Origin: Azolla caroliniana
Taxonomy: Eukaryota > Plantae > Polypodiophyta
Length of the DNA: 64,000 nt
Reading direction: 5' to 3'
Assembly (NCBI GenBank): GCA_043228905.1
Contig: JBHGNT010000011.1
Location: forward strand, 3,286,001-3,350,000
Part shown: in pieces, positions 22,624-54,944 of the stretch
Numbering within the stretch: position 1 is the stretch's first letter
Layout: each line of letters starts with the position of its first letter
The notes under the pieces: generated by a model
The model's database searches: none
Seen by the model: only the letters and a program-made list of their open reading frames with translations
Told to the model about the DNA's origin: nothing
Position numbers and translations under genes: made by a program

Positions 22624-22943
22624 TTGAACCCCCGCCGCTTGTTCTCGTAATGTTAATATAGTAGCCTCGAGTTGATGAACCCGTTGTGATAGCTCCTCAT
22701 ATTGATGAGCTTTCTTTGTACTCACTTGTTGTAGATCCCTGAGTAGCCTTTGATTTTCTTGCTCTAATTCCACAAACTTAGTCGTGAGCATGTCGAGCTC
22801 GGAAAGGACACACATATACTGTTGCTTGTTGACGGACTCCATAATTGAGGGGGAAAAAGAAACAAGGAAAAAGAAGAAAGCTTGCTAGGGTTATTGGAAA
22901 AGGAAAAAGAAAGAATTCGGTTCAAACTGTCGTGACTCGTGAG

Positions 22944-23009
<66 letters not shown>

Positions 23010-26000
23010 CTTGAAATGGAAATGAGATTATATTATGAGGAAACAAGATTACAAAGAGTAGGTTAAGGGCTAAAGACTGGCGTTGAATCGAATGAGTTGT
23101 GATGAATGAATGGACACTTATTTATAGATCCTTATGGAGTATTCTAGAATGTTCTAGAATATTTTAGATATTTATGATAATAAATATAATCATCAAATAT
23201 TCAAGGATGTTCTAGAATAATCTAGAATGTTCTAGAATATTCTAAATATCTCGTAATAACTAAAAATAAAATTATTATAATTACACATCATATATGTTAT
23301 TACAATGGTTAAGGGTTCAACATATAGACCAAGAAGTTGTGGGTTTGATTCCTGGTTAATGTATATCTTCATGACATTATCCCCCCTTTTTGATGTTGAG
23401 TTGTACGAGTCAGAGGACAAGAGTTCAGACTTGGTTTATGGGGATATTGGTTTTGAAATGCAACAACCATGTCGGAGGCATTAGCAAGATGCTCGACAGG
23501 CTCCCATGTTCGATCATTAGGTGTATAACCTAAGCAATCAACCAAATAATATGGTTTGTTGCGGATGATCTTGGAGTCGAGAATGGCAACAACCTCATAT
23601 TCAGAGCCATTGGAAACTTTGAGTGGAGGTGGGGGAGGTGTAAGACGACCCAAAATAGAGCTTGTTGTGTAGGGCTCCGAAAGTGAAACATGGAAGACCG
23701 GGTCAAGACGCATATGAGGAGGAAGATCAAGACGAAATGTCACATCATTGATCTTACCAGAGATCACATATGGGCCGAAATGTTGATAATCCAATTTGTA
23801 GCAAGGTTGGGTGATTTTGATGCTACCTTGTAAGAGCCATACATGATCGCCTACTTGAAATGTAGCCGATGAATCACGCCGATGACTATCAACAATCTTC
23901 TTTTGAGTGTTTTGGGCATCACATAAATGATGCAAAAGTATATGATGAAGTTCTTGGAGTCGGGTGAGCCGATCTTCAACAGCCGGGTTTTTCGGGAGTT
24001 CGGGATGTTCAAGCATCATCCAACGAGGATGGTACCTAATGTTCGCAAAAAATGGGGAATATCTAGTAGAAGAATGTTTGGAGTTGTTGTAACCAAATTC
24101 CGCCAAATGAAATAGATCCACCGAATCATCGTGTTGATAGTTGACAAAACAATGTAGATATTGTTCAACCGTTTGGTTGGTGCGCTCACTCTGCCCATTA
24201 GTCTCTGGATGGTAGCCGGAAGAGAGTTTACAAGAAGCATGTAAGAGTTTGAACATGTGCCGCCAAAATTTCGAGATGAATTGGGGACCCCGATCACTGA
24301 TAATATCATATGGAAGACAATGATGGCAAAACACCTCCCGCGTGAGTAAATCGGTTGTCTCTTGACTAGTAATGGTCTTCATGCATGGAACGAAATGCGC
24401 CATCTTTGTAAAACGATCGACTACCGTGAGAATAGAATCAAATCCCTTGGAAGGTGGAAGATCCATAATAAAGTCCAAGGAAATAGATTTCCATGGGCTC
24501 TCGGGAATAGGCATTGGCTGTAATAAGCCATATGGATGATGTTGAGGCTTTTTTGATCGACAACATGTATCGCAACTAGGAACATAATCTGTAACAAAAT
24601 CGCGAACCCGTGCCCACCAATATCGGCGAGAAATCAACTCAAAAGTCTTGTGGATGCCGAAATGTCCAGCCCATGGTGTGTCATGACATTGTTGCACGAC
24701 TTTGAGTCGAGAAGGACCATGAGGCACATACAAGAGAGTTTGTCGAAAAAGTAAACCATCATGCTAGCTAAACTAGGTGTAGTCTAGACGAGGATTTTGA
24801 GATTGGGAGCTGGAAGCACAATTTGGGATAATATGGCTCAAAACTCTTGGGTGAATCATCGGTCTCAATATGCTCCTGAATGGAATCAAGAAGCCTTGAA
24901 TCTCTTGGTGTGTTGATAGTATGCATTGCCATTAGTCATAAACGATCAAGACCTAAGAGGATTTGCTTTTGACTTTCAAATGTGGCCTCTCTTGGTTGAA
25001 GTTCCATATATGAACGTTGAGATAAAGCATCTGCTTTGTTGCATCCCAGGGAGATATAGAATTACGAAATCAAAACGAGTTAAGAATTGCGCCTAACAAG
25101 CTTGTCGACGATTCAAGACTTGAGCACTTTGGAAGTATGTTAGATTTTTCTGATCATTGTAGACAATAATCAGTTGAGAAGAACCCTCCAAAAAATGATG
25201 CCATTGTTGAAAAGAATCCACAATGGCAAGAAGCTCTTTGTTGTGAATCTCATAGTTGATTTCTGCAGCTTCAAATTCCCGTGAGTGAAAAACCATTGGG
25301 TGCAGTTCGCCATCTTCGCCAATTTGGGATAGTACGCTTTCGAGTGCGAAATCAGATGCATCAGCTTCAAGTATAAACCGCCTGATTGGATCGACATGCA
25401 TTAAAATTGGTGCAAATGTAAACGCTTGCGTTAAACTCTGAAATGCAGAGTTCACATCTATACTCCATACAATTGATCAATTCGTTTGCGTCAGTTGAGT
25501 GAGGAGCAATACAATCTTTGAATAATCTTTGATGAACTTGCGATAAAATTTTGCGAACCCCAAAAAACATTGTACATCTCGCACAGACTGTGGTGTTTGC
25601 CAATCCAAAATTGTTTGAACCTTTGATGGATCCATAGAGATGTCATTTGAAGAGACTATGTACCCCAAAAATTCCACTTGACATTGGTTGAAACTACACT
25701 TCTCCAAAAAACTTGGCGAACGTGTATCTCATCCTCCTCTTGAGTTTTTGAGTAGAGATCAAGATATCATCCAAGTAAACTATGATGAAGATATCGAGGA
25801 ATTCTTGAAGAATGTCATTCGCCATATGTTGGAAAAAACTTATTCGTTTAACACATCCTTTAATTGGCTCAAGACATCAAATCTATTCTCATGGCATGGG
25901 CTATTAGGCTTAGTACTTAAGTTATTAGAAGTGATAGTAGAACTTGAGGTAGGGTTGTCATGTGCACTTACTTGGTAAACCTGATGTCTGGGTTTATGTG

Positions 26001-33446: not shown

Positions 33447-34551
33447 GCCGTCCTAGTGCAATCGGTGTCTCCAAAACTAGCTTGAAACTCCTTAACGAAT
33501 ACTTCGAAATCCTCCAACAATGGTGATTTCTTCTCGAGAAGTGGTGCAAACCATGCTAATGTTGTACCGCTTAGTAAGGTTCCTACTAATCCCACATGAG
33601 GAGCATCAGTTGGGTACCGATTGGGATATAATTGAATCACCAAACGGACTTGATTCAGGAAACCTCGAAACAGAGATCTGGTACCATCAAACTTGGTGGG
33701 GAGGCTAATCTTTGGTTCCCTTGGGGAGTTTTGAGCCCCCGCCGCTTGTTCTCGTAATGTTAATATAGTAGCCATGAGTTTATGTACCTGTTGTGATAGC
33801 TTCTCATATTCAGATGAGCTTTCTCGGTACTCACTTGTTGTAGATCCTCGAGTAGCCTTTGATTTTCTTGCTCTAATGCCACAAACTTAGTCGTGAGCAT
33901 GTCAAGCTCGGAAAGGACACACATATACTCTTGCTTGTTGACGGTGTCGTGTTATTACTTGCGTGCGTGTAGAATGAGGCGGGACCGCGGGGGTCTTGGT
34001 TCGAGGAACAAGAGAGTGGGAGGGGAGCAAGAGAGACAACGGCCGTGCTTCGGACACGCACAAATACACAGAAACCGCAACTGATTGAGACAAGATGAAC
34101 GTGTGTAGGTGTATGTATATATACCAGATAAAAGGGGTTACAACCGGCGGGCCGGTGAACGACGAGCTCTCACGCCTCCACGCACACGCACACACACACA
34201 CACACGTGAGATGGAGACTCAGTCGGAAGCACTTGGGCGTTCTGCGGAGCAGAGTCAGCCTCCCGAAAACTTGCACAGAGCAAATACAGAGAAAGACCGA
34301 GAAGAAGAGCTCGGTCTCAGTCCGTTAGCACTTCGTCCTCGACAAAAGCGATCCCCATTATGATTCCTCTCCCTCTCTTTCCTACGCACCCATACTGGCA
34401 TACCACTTCTTCGATCAGAAATTGGCACACGGCCGCGGTCGTTTTGTTCGGCAACGCTCGGCCTTCCACCTGGTTTGTCAGGTCCTCTGGAGCCAGCACC
34501 AGATATCACATCTTCCCTACCCCAATTGGCATCGTCACCAGATCCACCATC

Positions 34552-35053
34552 TGTCGAGACTCGTGGGTAGAAGATAGAGTGAGAGCGAGAGTGAGAGCGA
34601 AAGAGAGAGGGTGTGTGTGTGTGTGCGTGAGAGAGAGAGAGAGAGTGAGAGAGATAAGACTTGAAATAGAAATGAGATTATATTATGATGAAACAAGATT
34701 ACAATGAGTAGGCTAAAGGCTAAAGACTGGTGTTGAATCGAATGAGTTGAAACGAATGTATAGACAGTTATTTATAGGTCCTTATGGAGTAATCTAGAAT
34801 GTTCTAGAATATTTTAGATTTTATGATAAGAAATATAATCATGAAATATTAAAGGATGTTCTAGAATCATCTAGAATGTTCTAGAATAATCTAGAATGTT
34901 CTAGAATGTTCTAGAATATTCTAATATCTTGTAATAACACATAATTATTATAATCACACAACATATATGTTATTACAATGGTTAAGGGTTCAACACATAG
35001 ACCAAGAAGTCGTGGGTTCGATTCTTGATAACCAAAATGTTGTCTTCATGACA
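34552..35053 (-). mobile_element. Solo LTR of a C-related family inserted in the integrase of I
   Basis: TG...CA ends, perfect TSD CCATC (34547-34551/35054-35058), collinear with the C LTRs including the (TCTAGAATGT)n repeats. Confidence 0.93.
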
Positions 35054-36861
35054 CCATCCACTTGAAGTGGATGGTTGGAGGGTAGGTTGGGTGGAGCTCG
35101 TCCCGATGTCGGACTATGGAGTGCATCTGACAGCTTTCGCAAGTCGTCACGAACTGATGCACGTCCCGGTATAGTCCCGGCCAACAGTACTTCCCCTTCA
35201 GCTTCTCGAATGTGGTCCACATCCCGCGGTGCACAACCTAGGGACTTTCGTGCTACGCCGCCAACAATTTCTCCTGCTCCTCTTTCTTTGCCACCACCCG
35301 GAGCGGAACGCCGTTTCTCTTCTTCAGGTGTTTCCAGATGCACCCATCTCTCAGGAAGAATCGATATGCTTTCTTGAGAACCCGGTTAGTCTCTTCCTTC
35401 GTCCACGCCATGCCGGGTGTCATTGTCTTCAATAACCCGCCGATCCGGAGCCACTCCCCACCGTACTTGCTCTCGTCAAACTTGTTAAGCGCCGGAGTGC
35501 TCCCCTTCCTTGTTGTCACGTAAGCCGACTCGAAGAAGTCCACGCCGACTTCTTCGTCCTCCGAAACCATGCCGTCCTCATCATCGAATCTCGCCCTTGA
35601 AAGCATGTCGGCCATGGCGTTGTCTTTTCCGGAAATGTGCCATATTTCCGGAATCAGGCACTTGATGTACACTATCCACCTGAGCATTGCTAGGTTCTGT
35701 GTCGTGCATCCAGAAACCAGACTGAGAATTGGTAGACAATCCATCTCAATTATCACCTCTATCCCAATCAGGTAGTCTTTGTCGGCCTTGGCCGCCGAAA
35801 CGATACCCTAGAGTTTGCGTTTAACCTGGGAGTATCCTCGTTGTCGTTCACTGAGGACTTTTGCACCAAACCGAATGGGGAACCTCGTGCCGTTCTCATC
35901 CTCCTAGTTGATTACCGATCTAATTCCGGTCGGACTCGTGTCTACGGTCATGTAAATCGGAATGTCTTTACCGTAGACCACTTTTCGGAGTGTCGGTGCC
36001 GCATCAAGTGCTTCTTTCATTCTCCGGTACACATCCGTACTAGGCCGAGGGGAGTCCGCATCGTCGTAATTTCCCTGCTCTCCACGGCTAGCTGGAACTG
36101 ATCGTATCCCGAGTACAGATCACCGACCGAGTAAATTGACCTTCCGGTGAAGGCCTCCGCGAACTCGTCTATGGTCGGTCCAATTCCTGCGTTCCGAATG
36201 GTCACCTTGTTGATCGGCTGTAGGTCCTGAATGAAGCGCAGCGTGCCGTTCTTCTTGGGCCTAGTAAACCACCGATTAGAATACAGGGCACTCGATGGTT
36301 CGAGGATATGCCCATATCCACCTTCTGTTTCAGCAACTCCATCAACTTCAAGATGTGAGCTCTAGGAATTGGAATCGGTTTGAGATTCCACGGTACATGT
36401 GGTATTGTGAAGATCACCATCGGTTCCACAATCGTCGGGTCTACGCACCTGATCTCCTCCGGCGAGAATGCAAAGGCCTTTCCGTGCCTCTCGAGCATTC
36501 TCCGAAACCGGCTCTCCTTCGTCGGCAGTAGAAAGCCGCCTCTCGTAGCGTTTTATCGGTGAATCAGTGTCCTATGCCAGCCGGATCTCGTAAACTTGGG
36601 TTTGACACGACCCCCTTCATCCGTAACTCGCTGCCCTCCGGCAAGGGTGCCGCGACTGGCCTCACCTTCCAGTCCACAGTCTTGTACTTCGTATCCACTC
36701 GAGCCGTCCGATCTGACTCGAGTCCTCTACCGAAGTCGGCAATGACTTCGTACGTCTTTTCCGTACATACCGGAATCATCTGGTCTCCACTAAGGCCCTC
36801 TCCAAACACCTCCCGTAGCCTCCCCAAGGTGTCGTCGAAAGAGACCGCCTCCATGGCTCCG

Positions 36862-39800
36862 TGTCAGGAATAGTACTAAAGCAGAGATGGAATTAGTACT
36901 AAAGAACAACAATACTATTAGTACTAAGAGGACAGGACTGCGTAAGATTCCCGAGAGAGGAAGTGAGAAGAGGAGAGAGAGAGATAGCGAGAATGAGAGA
37001 GAGAGAGAGAGATGATGACAACAACTAATATATTATGTGAAAAGATAAGTACAAGCGGCTAAGAGGCTTAAGACTGGCGTTGAACCTATTTGGTTCAAAA
37101 CAATGCCTTGTGCCTCCTTTTATAGTGTTTTTAGGAATAATCCTGAAGCTTCTAGAATGTTCCAGAGAGATCTGGAATATACATCAATTTTCTATGATAA
37201 AGCATAAATGAAAATAATATCCTACAAAATACAATTCATCGTCTAATGGTAAGAGCTCGACCCATGTAGCATAAGGTCATGGGTTTGAGTCTTGCCATAT
37301 CATGACACTATCTTCCCCTTAAAGACGACGAGTGGAACAAGTCAGCGCTAATTGCGGATCGGGTTTGTCCGGATACTTTCGGTGGAAATCAGCAAGAAGA
37401 TCTTGTGCATTGGCAACATGCTCGACGGGTTCCCAAGTACGTTCGCTCGGACTATAACCGAGCCAATCGACCAAGAAATAAAGTTTGTTGCGAACAAGTT
37501 TGGAATCGAGGATGGCAGCAACTTCATACTCTGGGCCGGCGTCCAACTCCAGCGGGGGCGGCGGTGGTGTCACACGATCGGGAATGGTGTTTGCTTTATA
37601 AGGTTCAAGAAGAGAACAATGGAAAACCGGATGTATCTGAAGCTGCGGAGGGAGATCAAGGCGGAAGGTGACATCATTAATCTTCCCTGTAATACGGAAA
37701 GGACCGAGTCGTCGATAATCCAACTTGTCGCACGATCGAGTAGTCTTGATGTGACGACGTAAGAGCCATACTCGATCTCCGATGGCAAAAGAGGAGGGAA
37801 TCCGATGACGATCCGCATAAGTCTTCTGTGTGTGTTGAGCATGACGAAGGTGAGTAGAGAGATCCATCTGGATCTTGCGTAGCCTCTCCAAATGATCCTC
37901 GGCACGAGGGTTGGTAGGTAGCTCCGGAGTGTCGATCACCGACTAGCGAGGATGGAAACCGGTATAAGCGAAAAATGGGGAGACCTGAGTCGAGGAGTGA
38001 ATAGCATTATTATATGCAAACTCCGCAAAGTGGAGAATCTCGGCCCAATCGTCCTGTTGATAACTCAAGAAACACCGGAGATATTGCTCCAGCGTTTGGT
38101 TTGTTCGTTCTGCCTGTCCGTCGGTTTGAGGATGGTAGCCGGAGGAGAGGTTGCAGGAGACCTTGAGCATCTTGAAGAGATGCTGCCAAAATTTGGAGAC
38201 AAATTGCGGGCCTCGGTCACTGATAATACTGTCTGGGAGGCCATGATGCCGAAATACCTCACGCATAACAAGAGCGGCGGTTTCCTCGCTAGTGATGGCT
38301 TTAGTACATGGCACAAAATGTGCCATCTTCGTATATCGATCGACCACGGTTAGGATAGCATCGAACCCCTTCGAGACTGGCAGATTTGTGATAAAATCAA
38401 GACAAATAGACTGCCATGGCTTACTTGGAATCGGTAAAGGTTCCAACAAGCCATATGGATGGTGTCGTGGCATCTTTGCTCAGCAGCAAGCATCACAGGT
38501 CCGAACGTAGTCGTCGACAAAACGTCGCATGTGGGGCCACCAAAAAGATCGTTGCACTAGCTCTAACGTCTTAGTACTACCGAAATGTCCCGCCGTATGG
38601 GTGTCGTGACAATGTTGGACGATTTGAAGGCGACAGGAGCAATCGGGGACATATACGCGCTTTTTAAAGAATAACAAACCATCATGATATTCAAATTGTT
38701 GGTAGTCAATACCTGGTTGTTGAGACTGAGAGCAGGATGCCCGAGAAGTATCAATGTGCGCCAGGATGTCTTGAGCAAAACTATCCGTCTTCAAGGTTGC
38801 ACGTATGTCATCGGTAATCCGTGAATCCATCGGGGTGTGAAAAATCCGCGTCGTGTGCAATCGTGTTGGTCCCAAGATTACTTGCTTTTGATTATCAAAT
38901 GTTGCGTCACCAGGACGAGGTGCAAGATATGAACGCCGTGATAGTGCATCTGCTTTTCCTGGCTGCTTCCCCTGTCGATATGTGATTTTGAAGTCGAAAC
39001 GGGTGAGGAATTGCGCCCATCGAGCTTGCCGTCGATTTAGTACGCGAGCGTTCTGAAAATAAGCAAGATTTTTATGATCGCTAAAGACAATGACCTGATG
39101 TGGAGAGCCCTCTAAGAAATGTCGCCATTGTACAAATGAATCCACGATGGCTAATAACTCCTTGTCATGTATTTCGTAGTTGATTTCTGCGACATCGAAT
39201 TTGCACGAATGGAAAGCCACCGGATGCAACTCTTCTTTATCGCCTTGTTGAGAAAGGATGCTACCAAGGGAGAAATCTGATGCGTCGGCCTCCATGATGA
39301 ATGGTTTGCTTGTATCCACGTGAGCTAGAATCGGTGCTGATGTAAAGGCTTTCTTAAGATGCCGAAAAGCCATATTTGCTTCTATGGACCAAAGAAATGC
39401 TTGGCCCTTCTTCATAAGTTGTGTGAGAGGTAAAATAATCTTCGAGTAATCCTGTATAAACTTACGGTAGAAGTTAGCAAAACCTAGAAAACATTGTACA
39501 TCTCGTATCGACCGTGGAATTTGCCACTCTAGTACAGTTTGGATTTTAGCTGGATCCATGGCGATGCCCTTTGAGGAGATGACGTAGCCTAGAAATTCCA
39601 CTTGCTTGCAGTCAAAGCTACATTTTTCTAGCTTGGCATAAAGACCATTCTCGCGGAGTTGCTTTAGTACTAATAGTACATGAGAATCGTGCTCTTCCTG
39701 GGTCTTCAAATAAATCAACAGATCATCTAGATAAATGATCAAACAGATATCCAAGAGGTCTCTGAATATATCATTTGCCATGTGTTGGAAGACTGCGGGT

Positions 39801-42560
39801 GCATTGGTTAGGCCAAACGGCATAACAGTATACTCGAAATGCCCATACCGCGTGCGAAAGGCGGTCTTCCACTCATCTCCCGGTCGGATCCGCACGAGAT
39901 TATACGCTCCTCGTAGGTCGATTTTAGTAAAAAACTTGGCACCATTAACTCGCTCTAAAAGACTTGATATAAGAGGAAGTGCATACCTATTCCGGATGGT
40001 GACTTTATTCAATCGCGGTAATCAACGACAAGACGAAGTGAGCCATCTTTCTTCTTGACAAAGAAGATGGGTGCACCGGCCGGAGATTTCGAATGACGGA
40101 TGAACCCGCTTGCCAAGTTCTCCTCTATGTAGGCTCGAAGGACTTCTAACTCGGTGGGTGACAAGTTGTAAATTGGTCCCCATGGTGGCCCGGTTCCTGG
40201 TTGTAAATCAATGGGACAGTCATAGGGACGGTGATGAGGAAGGGTACCGGCCTTTACCTTGTCAAATACATCGGCATAAGGATGATATTTTGCCAGAAGT
40301 TGTACTGAGGAGTCCTTCTTAATAGTGCTGGAAGGATGTACTGATATGGCAAATAGGAACATTGCCTCCTTGGGTCCTTCTTCGCGTAGTTGATGGAGTG
40401 AAATGGTCGAAACTCGGTGAGTTGATTCTTGGGGTGGTCGATATCGGACTTCTCTTGTTCTCCAATCTATGGCTGGATTATGTAATTCAAGCCAAGGTAA
40501 TCCTAGGACAATGGGATGCTTTGGACTACTAATTATATTAAATGATATTATACACACAAAACTACCTAGGACAACTTGAATGGGTTCTGATTCTTCTACA
40601 ATATTCCCGGAAGCAATGGGACGACCATCAATGACCACTACAGATGCGGGACAAGGAAGTTTTCTTAAGGATATCTGAGAAGCTTGTGCAAAATTTCGAT
40701 CCATGAAACAGGAATTAGCTCCGGAATCTAAAAGTGCTAGGATGGGTACTAGGGGAGTACTTTTAGTACTAACAATGACTTGGGCTAGGAACACATTGCT
40801 AACTTGCTTGGAAGGAATGGAACCACTAATGGGCTGTACAGATCTAAGGCTGCTGTCCAACCAAACGGCTCCTATTTTGGCTGGACTCAATCGTTTAACT
40901 CTTCATCTAATTGACTAAGGATTTCAAATTTATTTGAGATACTTGGGCTATTAGTACTATGAATACTATCTGACACTCTATTAGTACTATTAATACTATT
41001 AGACACTCCGAAGGGAAGAATTGACTCGGGTTTAGTACAGGCGACGATTTGATTTACCAGTCTTCTTGGCCTATGGGGACAATTGATGGCGATATGTCCT
41101 AGTCCACCACAATAAAGACATAATCGATTGGCACGTCGTCGTTGCTTTTCTTCTTCCGATAACAGGCCGTGTCGACGCATGGTATCGATCTCCATCGGTG
41201 TCGAAGTATTTGCTTGAGGTATGTCTCGTGCAAACGGTTTAGCCGCGATTGCGGCGTAAATGGGCTCCGGCCTAGAGCGTGGTATCTATAATTGACGTTT
41301 TGAACGTCGTTCGAAAATGCGGTTGTCACATCGAACTGCTCGACTGATTGCCTTCGTAAGAGACTTTGGTTCTTCGGGGAAAGTTAGAAGTAGATCTTTG
41401 ACATCGTTTCGCAAGCCATAGCAAAACTGCTCCATTAGTGCTTGATCATCCTAGGGTATATCTGAAGCAAGTAGGCGGAAATCCGCCGCGTAGGCAGAGG
41501 CTGGACGACCGCCTTGACGCAATCGCCGGATCTTGTTGATCGCTGTCCTGATGCTGTTGGTGTCTCCAAAGCAGGCTTTAAACTCACCAATAAAATCTTC
41601 AAAGTTATTAAGCAAGGGCGAATCTTTTTCTAGAAGCGGAGCGAACCATGCCAAGGCTGAGCCGCTAAGTAGTGTGCCTATTAGGCCGACTCGAGATGCA
41701 TCAATGGGATATCGGGAAGGATGCATCTGGATGACTAAGCGTACCTGATTAAGGAATCCCCGGAATTGCGAACGCGTTCCATCAAATTTCACAGGAAGTC
41801 CAATCTTGGGCTCTTTATGAAATCCTTGGGGACTTGATCCTTGTTGTTGCAACGCTGCTTCGAGTTGTTGTACCTGTAACACTAACTCCCCATGTTGTTG
41901 TTGCGTTTGTTGTTTTTCTAGAGCGATTTGTTGCAGATCCCCTATTAGCCGTTGGTTTTCTTGTTCCAAGGCAACAAACTTTTCTTTTAGGCATTGTAGC
42001 TCGGAGAAAACGGATTGGTATTCCTGGGCGCTAACAGTAGCCATAGTATAGGGAAAAGGGTAGGAGGATGAGGGAGAGTGACAAGTAGGCTGGAGGAAAA
42101 ATTGGTTCAAACTGTCAGGAATAGTACTAAAGCAGAGATGGAATTAGTACTAAAGAACAACAGTACTATTAGTACTAAGAGGACGGGACTGCGTAAGATT
42201 CTCGAGAGAGGAAGTGAGAAGAGGAGAGAGAGAGATAGCGAGAATGAGAGAGAGAGAGAGAGAGATGATGACAACAACTAATATATTATGTGAAAAGATA
42301 AGTACAAGCGGCTAAGAGGCTTAAGACTGGCGTTGAACCAATTTGGTTCAAAACAATGCCTTGTGCCTCCCTTTATAGTGTTTTAAGGAATAATCCTGAA
42401 GCTTCTAGAATGTTCCAGAGAGATCTGGAATATACATCAATTTTCTATGATAAAACATAAATGAAAATAATATCTTACAAAATACAATTCATAATCTAAT
42501 GGTAAGAGCTCGACCCATGTAGCAGAAGGTCATGAGTTCGAGTCTTGCCATATCATAACA
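36862..42560 (-). mobile_element. Element D: near-intact Gypsy chromovirus (Tcn1-like), apparently the youngest insertion
   Basis: LTRs 36862-37307 and 42113-42560 (roughly 97% identical by eye); perfect TSD CTCCG; PPT 37308-37323. Gag 40887-42044, pol 37319-40890 (LLDSGA protease, YLDD RT, RNase H, integrase, chromodomain) with only a few stops or frameshifts. Confidence 0.97.
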
Positions 42561-45429
42561 CTCCGTTGATTTCCTCTCCGGGGCCGAGGACTCTACATGC
42601 CCTGAGTCGTTGTTCTACCTGCTTCTTCTCCCGGCCAACGACGTCGGTTATTGTACAATTTCCATTGTCGGAGAACCAAAACTTCCTACCTATGTTACAG
42701 GTTCTTCTGCCAACTACACACGTGTGGGGTTTTTCTGGAGTGTCCGGACTATCGCGGCCCCACGCCTTGATAGCCCTCTCTAAAAATCCCCTCAGCTTTT
42801 GCCGCCAAGGGTCTCTCGGTTTCGTTCATGGTTCGGTCATATCGTTAGAAACTGGACGGAGTGACGATGGTCCTGGCTCTTGACTCGCGCGTACGCCGAA
42901 TTGTTGTCCAGAACCTTAGTCTCCATTCGCGCCGCTGTGATGTACGATTCCCCGAGTATCACCGGATGCGAGGATGTCTCCTACACAAAGAAGTGTTGAT
43001 CGATCTTGACATCACCGATTTTCACTCATACGTTCGGGCACGCTCCGTGTAGCTCCTCCGTGGCGCGTGTCGCCGCTCGTATTTTCCACCCGTGCTTGGT
43101 GTTGATCGGCCACATGCCCTTCTTGTAAAAGTCCATGGATATCAAGTTGATTTCCGAACTGTGGTCCACCAACACCACCACCGGCGCATGGACATCTCCG
43201 ATCTTAACGGGGTTCTCCGTAGTGGCTCTGGCCCAATGTAGCCTCGAATAGTGGCTTTCCGCCCGAACCGGGTCTCATACCGTTGCAAGGGTCCAATCCC
43301 TCTAGTCTTTCCCGCATGCTTCTCTTCCACCAGAACCTCGTAGTTCTGGCACGCGGCTTCTACGAAGCCCGTCTTTTCTTCGACCGGGTCACTCCACCTG
43401 GTTACCTCCCGGACTCGTCTTTCTGCGCGGTCCGCTTCCTCTTTCCTCAATCGTACGCCGGCGAGGCCTTCTAGCATCAACGGCCAGAACACGGAGTCCT
43501 TCGTCTTCCGGACTTCGTCGATCCCGACCCGGATTCCTACCGACGCCGAGTAGTGGACGGTCTCCGCGTGACGAGCCGCCGCTTCTTGCATCAGCGCTTC
43601 ATTCCCCCTCGTCCAACATTTAGTTCCAGGGCCCTCCTGGTTTCGCTAACGTGTACACGCCCGTTCCACAGGTACGCCACGGTAGACCTTATCGCTTCGG
43701 CGAAATCCCCAGGCGTGGCCGACCGCGTCGCACCACAAGCACCGATGCTCGGCCAGAGGCCTTCGGTCGCGGGCTTGTTCGCCATTGTCCCTTCGTGCCT
43801 GTGCAATCTGGAGGTCCCTCACCATCTGAGTCAGCTTCTCCAGAGCCGCACCTTTGGACGGGCCCTTGACCACGCTGGTTGAAGTCGAACCGGTCTCAAG
43901 CGAATCTCGGGTTTCCTCCCTTCGCACCGGTGGGGGTACCTCGAGCTTCCTTGCCGCAACAGAGCCTGCCCCCGCCGAGCCTTTATCGACCCAATCTCGT
44001 TGTTTGTCGAAACGGACGCAGACTCTCTTCACCATGGCCCAGTCGGCCGTCAGCCCATCGTCGGTCTCCAGCAGGAGGCCCACTTGCTCCCGGTCCCTAA
44101 CGTCCACCGATTTAACAAACAATAGGACACGACTTGTGTCCAGTACGGTCCGGTCCAGCGCCGAAAGACGTGCGAAGCGTTCTTCAAACTCCAGGAGGAG
44201 CACCAATGCGTTTCTCCCCTTTTCGGGGGTCTCCACCCATTCCATGAAGTCCCGCTTCGATACCCGAAGCGCATCATCTAGCTCGTATTTCTCAAGGAGC
44301 CGACCTTCAAATTCTTCCCAGGTCTGGCTCTCAGCCCGTACCTGGAGCACCTCCGCATGGATGCTCGGCATTGCCACCCGAGGGAATCCGGCCAGTCGCC
44401 TGTCCTCCGGAATGTTCCTCATCATCATTTCGGCTCGGTAGGCCGCCAAATAGCTCATGGCGTCCTTTCCGCCAAACCGGCCTATCGTGCCGATGATCGC
44501 TTCAACGGCCCTATCGAGGGTGCCTGTGCCTTTGCGCACACTCACTATCCGATCCACAACTGAAGCCATGACTTCAGCAAGCTCCAATCCCCTCATCTTC
44601 CTATTCCTCTACCGCCTTTCACGTCGGGTTCACCAAATATGTCACGTTATTACGCGTGTGCGTGTACAACGAGGCAGGACCGCAGGGGTCTTGGTCTGAG
44701 GGACAAGAGAGCCGGAGGGGAGCAAGAGAGACAACGGCCGTGCTGACAATGGTCGTGCTTCGCACACGCACAAATACACAGAAACCGCAATTGATTGAGA
44801 CAAGATGAACGTGTGTAGGTGTATATATATATACCAGATAAAAGGGGTTACAACCAGCGGGCCGGTGAGTGACGAGCTCTGATGCCTACATGCACACATG
44901 CACACAAACGCGAGAGGGAGACTCAGCCGGAAGCACTCGGGCATTCCGCGGAGCAGAGTCTGCCTCCCGAAAACCTGCATAGATCAAATACAAAGAAAGA
45001 CAAAGAAGAAGGCCTTGGTCCCAGTTCGTCAGCACTTCGTCCTCGACAAAAGAGATCCCCATTACGATTCCTCTCCCTCTCTTTTATAGCCCAAGGAGGG
45101 AGGCCGTCACAACCCGTTACATCATCTTTATTCTTTGTCCTTTCGGACAGAGATACGCCTCGATTTTCTACCTAACAAATGCGTGCTACCTAGGATATTC
45201 ACATCAACCGACTTGTACCTAAATGTATATATTACAAAAAAACTTGTGCCTACATATAAGGGTCAGTTCGCGCTCATTATTCTCCGATTCCGCCTAGGGA
45301 CAATTTTCTCCACGACAACGGACTCCATAATTGAAGGGGAAAAAGAAAGAAGGAAAAAGAAGAAAGCTTGCTAGGGTTATTGGAAAAGGAAAAAGAAAGA
45401 ATTCGGTTCAAACTGTCGTGTCTCGTGAG

Positions 45430-45497
<68 letters not shown>

Positions 45498-48400
45498 CTT
45501 GAAATGGAAATGAGATTATATTTTGAGGAAACAAGATTACAAAGAGTAGACTAATGGCTAAAGACTGGTGTTGAACTGAATGAATTGTGATGAATGAATG
45601 GACACTTATTTATAGATCCTTATGGAATATTCTAGAATGTTCTAGAATATTTTAGATATTTATGATAATAAATATAATAATCAAATATTCAAGGATGTTC
45701 TAGAATAATATAGAATGTTCTAGAATATTCTAAATATCTTGTAATAACTAAAAATAAAATTATTATAATTACACATCATATATGTTATTACAATGGTTAA
45801 GGGTTCAACACATAGACCAAGAAATTGTGGGTTTGATTCCTGGTTAATGTATGTCTTCATGACAACCGTCTGGTCCAGAGCCAAGGAAAATACATTTCCC
45901 GGACCTTGGTGCAAGCTTTTGGCGATCGTCTTTTGGCACGAGAGCATAAGCCTCGTAGCCGAAAATCCTTAGTTTCTCATAATCCGGTTTTCTGACGATC
46001 CATAATTCTTGAGGAATATGATGTCCCAGAGGTCTACTCGGCGACATATTGATTATGTGTATTGCTGTAAGTAGAGCCTCTACCCAGAAGCCATCTGACA
46101 ATCTGGAGTGGTGGATCATGGACACTATTCATTCTTGAATTGTTCGATTCATCTGTTCAACGATTCTATTTTGCTCTGGACTATGAGGTTTCGTATATTC
46201 ACGCATGATGCTGCGCAATCGGAAAAATTTGGTGAATTCCTCATATCTGAACTCTTACTCGTTATCAATCCGAAGAAATTTTAGTTTTCCACCATGGCGA
46301 GCCATTCGGAAAAGATCGAGAATTCACGATCTTTGGTTTTGGCCGGATAGGCCCACACATTCCGAGTTGAATCGTCGATGAAGTTGACGAAATACAAGGC
46401 ACCACCAAGTGATTGATCTAGCATCGGGCCGCAAACATTTGAATGGACCAAGTCGAGCGAACTCGACTCTCTTGGTGTTGTCGTGGGGTGTGAAGCGGCT
46501 ATTTGTTTACCGTATTAGCAATGCTCAGAAAACTAATTATCGGAGAAGGAGAATTTGGGAATATATCTGGCTCTAATGAATGTGTGACGTTGGCTTTGAT
46601 GAGGTGTCCGAGTCGACCAAGCCATAATGATGACACGGGAATATCAACTAGAAACAAGTCACCCTCTCTAAGTGTGACATATAACGGCTACAATGAATGT
46701 ACTTTCGGACCTCGGGCAAGCAAGAGGTTTCCCCTTTGGTGTGTCCACCCTCCTGATGAGAAGCCAACATGGACGCCATCTTCACTGAGTTGTCCGACCG
46801 AGGTCAACGGTCTTGAGAGCTTAGGCACGTGTCAGACATTATGTAGCACCAATGTGCCGATTCTGATTATAACACAATGTTGCGAATTTCCGATTTAGAC
46901 TGAGTTGGAATGCTGGGCCGAATATTGCCAAAATTGTGATCTATGAGGAGTCACATGGTAGGACACGCCCGAATCCAAGAGGCAAGTGCTTGACTCTTCA
47001 GTCGTAAGCACAACTTCTTATTTGACTGAGTGTTCTATGAACATAATGTTTGCGTCGTCCCTCAATACTTCGGTTGATGAGCCGATGTAATTGACCTATT
47101 CTTGTCGGCTGCCCTTGTGATCAGCTCTCGGAGCTTTATCATTCCTGTCTTTGAGGGCGTGGCAATCAACCTTGATATGTCTGAGTTTCTTGCAATAGTT
47201 GCAAGTTCGATTATCCAGGGACTTGCTCCGGGTTCGCTGATTTTTCGGTAATCAAGAAGAACCTTTCCCACGACTGTTCGGTCGTTCGTTCGAACCTTGT
47301 ACTATGTAGGCATCTTTGGCCGAATCGTTTGCAAACAATTTTCTCTGAGTTGATTTAGTGAAGATTGAGCTTGTGACTTTGGAGTACTTTACTATAGTAG
47401 TCGATGCATTGCACACAGTTGCGACGAAAGTTTCCCATGAAGGGGGGAGACTACTCATTAGCAACATTGCTTTTAGTTTGTCTTCTATTGTCGTCCCTTG
47501 AGCTGAAATTTGGGAGCTTAGGCTTTCGTACTTGTTGAGGTGTGCCTAGAACAAGTCGAATTATTTCATCTGACGATTGTGGAGGTGCCGGATCAGGTAT
47601 ATCTTTGTTGCGGCGACCTTTTTTTAATAAGTATCCGAGAGTGTCTTCCATAATTGGAAGGTCGTTCAACACGATTACACTATGAAGTACACTGACTCCA
47701 ACAAGTGCATCTGAAGGGTGGTGCGGACGATTTGGTCCAACTTCGTCCACTCATTTAGCCTATATCCTTCTAGAGCATTTTCAGTCTTGATTGGGTTGAT
47801 CTGACCCTCGACTATCAGATAGTCTTACATCTGATCCTTCCAGAAGTTGAAGTTCGATCCGTCGAACTTCCTTAGACTCATCTCTAATGAGCTCGATGTT
47901 GATGTCATCTATGTCGGCTTGTACTTCAAGAGTGATTTAGTCTAGGTGTTTCTCCTCAAGAAGAAGGATCTTGTAGAGAATTGTTGGCCGAAACATTTTA
48001 GTCCACTGAAATATTAGATTATGTTCCAACAAAAAAATCAACAGAAGGTTCTTCAAAGGTTTCTAGAGGGGTGTTGATAGAGACAGGATGACAACCTGCA
48101 ATAGAATCAAAGACGCCAATCTCTGATACCATATGTTGGAGACTAAGACCGTCAATTTGGGGAAACAAGGATCAACAACTTTGTGAAGTACAACAAGATG
48201 AACAAAACACACGACCAATCGACAAAGTGAGAGGGGGAGAGAGAGACTCAGAGGCACACAATATATAACTTGTATTATTCAAAATGGCAACCGTAACAAT
48301 GAACAACCATAACAACTAGGTTACAAGAGTCAGTTTAAATACCAATTGACTTGGGCAACTACCCTTTCCAATATTTATATAAATATTTACAATCGTACAT

Positions 48401-54092: not shown

Positions 54093-54944
54093 GAGCATAG
54101 ATAAAAGATAGAGACAATGTATGATTCAAGAAAGAAGATTGAGACAAAGTATGATTCTAGAAAGAAGATTGAGACAAAGTATGATTCAAGGAACAAGAGT
54201 ATATGATATAAACATGATGTATATTAAAAATATAATATTTTACCAACTTTACAATCCTTGATCGCAAGATGAATCTTTTCAATACCGACCCTTGATTTGA
54301 ACCCACGACTTCCACTTTTAAACGCAAGTCTCTTCACCGAATACGATATCTTCAATACTTGCTTAAATTCTTTTCTCCCACTTTCTCTTGATCCCCTCTT
54401 ATTTCCTTGCCCCTCTTTATATAATTGTTGCCATGCATATGGTAATGTATGCAAGCATGGCATGCATGCAATGCATGAGTTACATGTAATGCATGATCGC
54501 CATTTGGTGTACATGCATTGCATGTGATGCATGATGGCTATGTATGAAAATAGATATGGGATAAGTATAATGATGAAAATGCATTTTACAATAATTAACC
54601 TAGCTCAGTGGTGCATGCTTTGTGTTTGGTATACAAGGTTGAGAGCTCAAGTCTCTCTATTTTACTCAATACAATATATACCTTCATTCTTATATCATGA
54701 AACACATTTTTTTACAAACTTTTACAAATAAATAGCCTAGCCTAGTGGTATTTACATTGTATTTCGTATATAAGGATGTGGGTTCAAGTCTCTCAAATAT
54801 TATTAAATACAATATTTAAGCTCATTTTTATATCGTGAAATACATTCTTCACGACAGCGTACCTTCTGTGTGTTAATCTCTCTCTCTCCCTGTTGCTATC
54901 CGGCTAAGCCGGTTGTCTAAAGCTTCCGCACCTTCGTTTTTACA
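48588..54944 (+). mobile_element. Element G: Copia of family A lacking its 5' LTR and PBS
   Basis: Gag starts MDRGMARSLPVEKLDRSNY at about 48662; the polyprotein is collinear with A but has many stops. PPT 53572-53583; 3' LTR 53584-54944 (interrupted by a solo LTR). Confidence 0.93.
53913..54856. mobile_element. Solo LTR (944 bp) inside the 3' LTR of G
   Basis: TGTCG...CGACA inverted ends and a 4-bp TSD GCAT/GCGT. Contains (GT)n(GA)n, three 30-bp repeats (about 54105-54195) and three tRNA-like modules. Confidence 0.75.

Follow-up and report, generated by a model that had tools for sequence, protein, structure and literature searches.

The LTRs of a clade of self-priming chromoviruses carry, in 9 of 10 lineages, a tRNA-derived A/B-box module that sits antisense to the element, 15-72 nt inside the LTR 5' end. 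As judged from sequence, this module is real and clade-wide, and it is likely both SINE-derived and under selection. The focal copy is a solo LTR surrounded by nested elements in the window (the whole stretch of DNA analyzed, 64,000 nt) and flanked by the 5-bp TSD CCATC at 34547-34551 and 35054-35058. The features of the window on which the argument draws are these:

22928..23376, minus strand: family C (C1) LTR, with module at 23298-23352 carrying C56T
23369..24763, minus strand: integrase, SH3 and chromodomain frame of the family C element (Pfam)
34552..35053, minus strand: solo LTR of family C (subfamily C2), with TATA, R-start motif and TSD
34971..34981, plus strand: A-box-like motif without G10, AATGG kept
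35009..35024, plus strand: extended B box GTCnnnnGTTCRAnYC, G53 at 35016
36862..42560, minus strand: sister chromovirus of family E, with gag, PR, RT-RH, INT and chromodomain (Pfam)
37239..37291, plus strand: family E module in the 3' LTR, B box with C56T
42101..42112, minus strand: family E self-priming PBS, complementary to the R start
42492..42544, plus strand: family E module in the 5' LTR, full extended B box
45414..45864, minus strand: family C (C1) 5' LTR followed by a self-priming PBS, with module at 45786-45840 carrying C56T

In the focal LTR, whose 5' end is at 35053, TATTACAATGG begins at 34971 and GTCGTGGGTTCGATTC occupies 35009-35024, both on the plus strand (i.e., antisense to the element) and both at most 83 nt from the LTR 5' end. 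A preliminary description of this DNA had set the two boxes 44 nt apart, as in tRNA genes. The tRNA-like spacing stands, but the 44 nt run from the start of the A box to GGTTCGA, and the 16-mer GTCGTGGGTTCGATTC starts 38 nt past the A box; the distance from A-box start to G53 is 45 nt, and that of short-arm host tRNAs is 43-46 nt. An antisense module near the LTR 5' end is indeed present in all three copies described, but only the focal one has the canonical B box, given that the boxes at 23342 and 45830 have C56 changed to T (GGTTTGATTCC). Moreover, the three full-length copies are not three elements: two are C1 LTRs, 96% alike, that flank one interrupted element, and the third is the solo LTR. 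Because both LTRs of the C1 element carry C56T, a B-box mutant may have transposed once. The LTR at 22928-23376 has a PPT and chromodomain ORF upstream and a self-priming PBS and gag start downstream, the layout of a tandem-element junction. Nor is the module peculiar to family C, whose A box turns out to be among the weaker ones: the family E element in the same window (LTRs at 36862-37307 and 42113-42560, 97% alike; TSD CTCCG) also has it and had been missed. Elsewhere in the window (54150-54800), and at loci of the L307-L326 type, other repeats contain tandem degenerate A/B-box units with spacers unrelated to the LTR module.

The carriers show the Ty3/gypsy domain order with a C-terminal chromodomain (Pfam), lack a tRNA PBS, and have instead a PBS complementary to the start of R. 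By layout and domains, they are autonomous, self-priming Tcn1-type chromoviruses, coding elements of 5-6 kb (5.7 kb in family E). The integrase tree comprises our own lineages and metagenome rows; the integrase ends of C, F-K and M are approximately 44-63% identical to that of family E. In many copies of lineage I, open frames run to about 1199 aa. TATA is found 182-315 nt from the LTR 5' end, inward of the module, which is antisense, about 140-300 nt upstream of TATA, and faces away from the element. Facing outward and lying upstream of TATA, the module is unable to make genomic RNA, and boxes kept clade-wide in an orientation that cannot drive element RNA need another job. The aromatic cage of a chromodomain is linked to heterochromatin targeting. 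In Neumann 2019 (PMC6317226), the Tcn1 clade is confined among plants to mosses and club-mosses, a distribution by which the host of the carriers would likely be a moss; Tcn1 chromodomains mostly retain the aromatic cage.

How widespread is the module? The genome searched comprises 523 Mb, and the lineages were reached by different routes: E2 via a metagenome integrase match; H from a flank; F and G via the motif; and I, J, K and M via a chromodomain sample drawn without regard to the motif, consisting of 90 of the 150 chromodomain matches listed, with the LTR start parsed in 85. In these chromodomain-selected LTRs, 57 of which belong to one cluster, GWTCRANNC occurs antisense within the first 100 nt in 71/85 and on the sense strand in 1/85, against a background of 0.019 per 100 nt; allowing C56T, the antisense box is found in 76/85. 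Once 14 copies without a clear LTR end and all identical copies were removed, B boxes were counted in 49/60 distinct copies of C, 26/31 of E, 16/28 of E2, 16/16 of F, 12/20 of G, 41/46 of I, 6/8 of J, 6/8 of K and 1/2 of M; lineage H has a module remnant only (0/18). No B box was found in six other LTRs (0/6), including three other chromovirus families, a search of the SH3 family returned other chromovirus families only, none with the module, and a scan of viral contigs gave no matches. Metagenome relatives carry the module at nine loci (L121, L122, L124-L128, L130 and L137) and show no canonical box at L132-L134; in Selaginella SM-Tcn1, the self-priming layout is present and no box was seen by eye (supplement S3 of PMC2864245). 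The remnant in H, L132-L134 and SM-Tcn1 together indicate that the module is dispensable in relatives. At L162, L169 and L176, an AT-rich non-LTR repeat contains a tandem amplification of the initial 100 nt from an E-type LTR (module plus terminus), and at G000:C3:23489068-23494642, family F modules about 377 bp apart form a tandem LTR-derived array.

The focal LTR end scores 36 when compared with 41 host tRNA sequences, whereas shuffles score 22.9 +/- 2.4 and 0/100 reach 36, so its tRNA likeness is above chance; its 16-mer B box is identical to the T arm of host tRNA-Lys(TTT). The full A box has the consensus TRGYNNARYGG, which is found in 27/31 copies of E and 18/28 of E2, not in F or G, and in 0/60 of family C, where 49/60 match with at most one mismatch (G10 missing). 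The plant SINE-Finder motif (RVTGG, 25-50 nt, GTTCRA; PMC7315354) occurs in C (49/60) and E (27/31) and not in I (1/46) or M. According to the sections of PMC3159450 that we drew on, GTC ahead of GTTCRA is a mark of tRNA-internal B boxes, and the resulting extended motif, GTCnnnnGTTCRAnYC, is present in the focal copy and in part of the copies in nine lineages (C 30/60, E 26/31, I 38/46, E2 9/28). A tRNA-gene search of the LTR, suggested in the preliminary description, brought no tRNA call on the module from ARAGORN or Rfam, nor did either call a cloverleaf in the module or in the head of the free SINE discussed below. A T4 terminator is absent within the LTR in C (58/60), E, I, K and M; a T4 run follows the B box directly in E2 (24/28) and 19 nt further on in G (19/20). 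The outer T-stem pairs are not retained in the module, and this loss, together with the general want of T4, points to a DNA motif having been kept and not a tRNA fold. We considered and rejected a single source tRNA, since the best host isotype varies by lineage (Lys, Thr, Arg, Asn, Ile, Gln, Met); with 19 isotype labels compared and some of them organellar-like, no isotype is assigned. Several structures were encountered along the way: at L357 (lineage K), the module forms a four-arm cloverleaf-like fold plus a 12-bp inverted repeat, which shuffles equal (z ~0); at L341, as in further copies of lineage I, a perfect 8-bp hairpin takes in the LTR terminus and has the B box as its loop; and at L031-L039, L048 and G000:C9:17.7-17.8 Mb, genes and pseudogenes for tRNA-Lys, tRNA-Ile and tRNA-Gly form big tandem clusters.

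The pattern of conservation is what argues for selection. Among the seven lineages reached by routes other than the motif, identity is 0.92 over 8 tRNA-invariant columns versus 0.40 over 46 variable ones, a figure that is inflated and partly circular at the alignment anchors (G53 and G18-G19); the anticodon-arm region is 0.27-0.37 and the upstream flank 0.31 identical. Less circular is the GTC located 5-7 nt upstream of G53, which is conserved at 0.90/0.91/0.78, with the next four bases varying by lineage, and which we recognized as a published mark only after its conservation had been measured. The G18-G53 distance is 34-36 nt in eight lineages, as in host tRNAs, and 42 nt in lineage I, where G18-G19 was picked by eye (the lineages are mutually nonindependent); the distance from G53 to the LTR end varies among lineages from 15 to 72 nt. 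No part of the module is more constant than the B box, and lineage I, with its B box in 41/46 copies and a SINE-type A motif in 1/46, has a pattern that would fit TFIIIC binding better than transcription. Given that the invariant bases, the GTC and the spacing are kept and that spacer and flank stand at background, we infer that the boxes are likely under selection as a TFIIIC-type site. The preliminary description had held that decay of the boxes at the rate of their flanks would speak against it; no such decay is seen, and between lineages the boxes outlast the flanks. At positions 56-57, CG has changed at the lineage level to the motif-permitted CA in E2, F, J and K, and TG is not the majority state in any lineage with at least 8 copies. 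Within families, the B-box CpG decays about as other CpGs do (9/121 versus 71/643, p=0.26), as expected after insertion, and so gives no sign of lasting protection.

Where did the module come from? Genome-wide, there are 11,232 extended B boxes versus 405 for controls, and a common variant of the box led to a free SINE family with a tRNA head, in which 10/20 loci have poly(A) (A6+) and 4/20 have clear TSD-like repeats. The SINE is about 215 bp long and consists of a tRNA head, an AT-rich body, a reversed second tRNA-like unit near the 3' end, poly(A) and TSDs; it is abundant, mostly adjoining (AG)n tracts (e.g., L457, L458, L460, L467 and L295, on G000 C1 and elsewhere). Identity to the SINE head is 0.83 in lineage K and 0.81 in J, compared with 0.87 among 19 SINE copies themselves, and falls to 0.58-0.66 in C, E, E2, F and G (C 0.60) and to 0.50-0.53 in I and M. 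When only the spacer is considered, similarity to the SINE is detected in J and K (p=0.002), E (0.006) and C (0.01), and none is detected for G, I or M. A homologous free-SINE head in the same genome makes the SINE head the likely source of the module. The preliminary description had named a free SINE with its own TSD as a finding that would count against it, and in part that came about, as a SINE with TSD and poly(A) does have a homologous head; this match identifies a likely source and does not thereby remove function. The accompanying statement, that a tRNA-derived A/B-box module travels within the LTR with no TSD or poly(A) of its own there, was borne out. The match in lineage K begins at the SINE 5' end and that in lineage J ends about 12 nt before the LTR end, boundaries that favor the SINE-to-LTR direction; the opposite course, in which an LTR transcript gave rise to the SINE, is possible. 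By integrase, J and K fall with H, I and M (support 82/93), whereas the module places them with the SINE, which, both trees being weak, hints at a second SINE capture in J and K; the module trees, of 58 columns and weak support, do not settle one versus several captures. tRNA-like units are frequent in other repeats of this genome as well.

We predict that TFIIIC or Pol III probably binds the module in some way. More specifically, we posit, at roughly even confidence, that the module is kept as a TFIIIC DNA site acting as a putative portable chromatin barrier before the Pol II promoter. In this model, TFIIIC on a fresh, unmethylated insertion would keep nucleosomes sparse at the border that parts the TATA box from the heterochromatin on its flank, and would protect the promoter of the element against silencing; lineages whose A box is complete might also have Pol III transcription, but the barrier would not need it. 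We favor such a barrier based on the constant B box that survives without an A motif in lineage I, the aromatic cage that is mostly kept, the position of the focal copy among nested elements, and the TFIIIC-only sites that, in the sections seen of PMC3159450 and PMC10530723, serve as heterochromatin barriers in yeasts. Counting against it are the decay of the B-box CpG at about the common rate, the possible transposition of a C56T mutant, the relatives that do without the module, and the want of spacer similarity to the SINE in G, I and M.

Other jobs for the module can be envisioned. It could be an active Pol III unit, with a short RNA (antisense or hairpin), or transcription running past the LTR to the PPT and integrase end, serving to tune the element or to supply small-RNA pathways. 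Foamy virus LTR miRNA cassettes would be a precedent (PMC3993851, seen in part), and the full A boxes of E and E2, the T4 runs after the B box in E2 and G, and a rod-like hairpin in E (z ~-6) and J (~-3), weaker in E2 and F, are as this idea would have them. However, the hairpin is weak in the focal copy (z -0.9), absent in G, I and M, and folds on both strands, z values of -3 to -6 are found in other U3 windows too, most lineages named above lack T4 within the LTR, lineage I lacks the A motif, and neither hairpin nor terminator is common to the lineages; we regard a Pol III RNA as a doubtful explanation. Alternatively, the module might be a neutral relic of SINE insertion, kept since LTR ends tolerate few changes. 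The SINE homology, the lack of CpG protection, the loss in H and the commonness of tRNA-like units in the genome's repeats all agree with a relic, but box columns near 0.9 against an inter-box spacer and flanks at background largely refute it; furthermore, the distance to the LTR end shifts by 57 nt and the A-B spacing by only 2 nt, and the changes at positions 56-57 run to the motif-allowed CA and nowhere to a TG majority (lineages with at least 8 copies), all of which renders a relic improbable.

TFIIIC on the LTR or cDNA could also steer integration to Pol III sites, for which Ty3-type targeting is a precedent, or the LTR could be a landing pad for other elements; at L069, one E LTR does lie upstream of a C-type LTR, some 30 nt from its A box. 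Yet 0/97 tRNA upstream regions (a small sample, biased to intact copies) have these LTRs within 250 nt, and, of 332 LTR flanks (likewise a small sample biased to intact copies), none has an extended B box and 1 falls in the zone upstream of a module, such that we find either role very hard to credit. A breakpoint hot spot upstream of the module was dropped because the cases were too few. Finally, B-box-like bases might pair with a primer and aid reverse transcription, as the bipartite PBS of Ty3 and the tRNA-like U3 sequence of HIV-1 would suggest: read on its sense strand, the module complements the T and D arms of tRNAs, and there is a likeness between GGTTCRA and GGTTCAA, the self-primer of C, E, E2, F and G. 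The PBS, however, is self-priming and not tRNA-primed, lineage I uses a different primer (L380), J and K share a similar, different R start, and the B box is kept in all; with the box retained in lineage I despite another primer, we reject primer pairing as extremely unlikely.

The module has counterparts among known systems, although none matches it throughout; the nearest, Helenus and Cassandra, are both nonautonomous. The Helenus TRIMs (TRIMp3; Kojima 2024, PMC10886601, read in part) likewise have tRNA-like LTR sequence with conserved boxes A and B, no functional tRNA, and a proposed origin from a SINE2 inserted into an LTR. Helenus elements, though, are short, noncoding, nonautonomous and tRNA-primed, and their promoter is proposed to make element RNA, unlike our carriers, which are coding elements of the size given above with a TATA box, self-priming and an antisense module. 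That source, as far as seen, expects autonomous elements to use Pol II, leaves orientation unstated, and mentions unanalyzed tRNA-like LTRs in Repbase. Cassandra TRIM, as described in the same portions of PMC10886601, also has a Pol III promoter in a plant LTR, but one that is 5S-derived, belongs to a nonautonomous element and drives its own transcript. The partly seen accounts of the Tcn1 clade (PMC6317226, PMC2864245) share the chromodomain, the missing tRNA PBS and the self-priming layout (SM-Tcn1 being alike in its R start and PBS; PMC2864245), and in those parts an A/B-box module goes unmentioned. Extra-TFIIIC (ETC/COC) sites and tDNA barriers are, in the excerpts used, B-box-centered and block heterochromatin without Pol III (PMC3159450, PMC10530723), but they are host chromosomal sites of yeasts and mammals, whereas the LTR module is a predicted site in an autonomous element. 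Foamy virus LTR cassettes place an A/B-box Pol III unit in the LTR of an autonomous retroelement, with hairpin, terminator and RNA demonstrated there (PMC3993851, in the part seen) and none of these common to the lineages here. In the literature covered, mostly open-access papers, we did not find the module described in moss chromovirus LTRs, and it may already have been annotated.

Pol III boxes in LTRs are known from small noncoding elements; here they are kept in a clade of coding elements. We speculate, tentatively, that heterochromatin-seeking chromoviruses might carry their own TFIIIC insulator, taken from SINE heads captured at the outer U3, and so stay expressible in silent chromatin. 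Such capture has perhaps been repeated at one and the same position and strand, given that the living SINE is nearly matched by J and K but not by I and M, which are related to them by integrase. A TFIIIC barrier, if true, would explain how elements that have landed in silent chromatin can be transcribed, and the 16-base motif makes the idea directly testable. LTRs and the SINE supply many of the extended B boxes inspected, which bears on host TFIIIC supply and chromatin domains; were the insulator reading true, the module would seed thousands of B boxes genome-wide.
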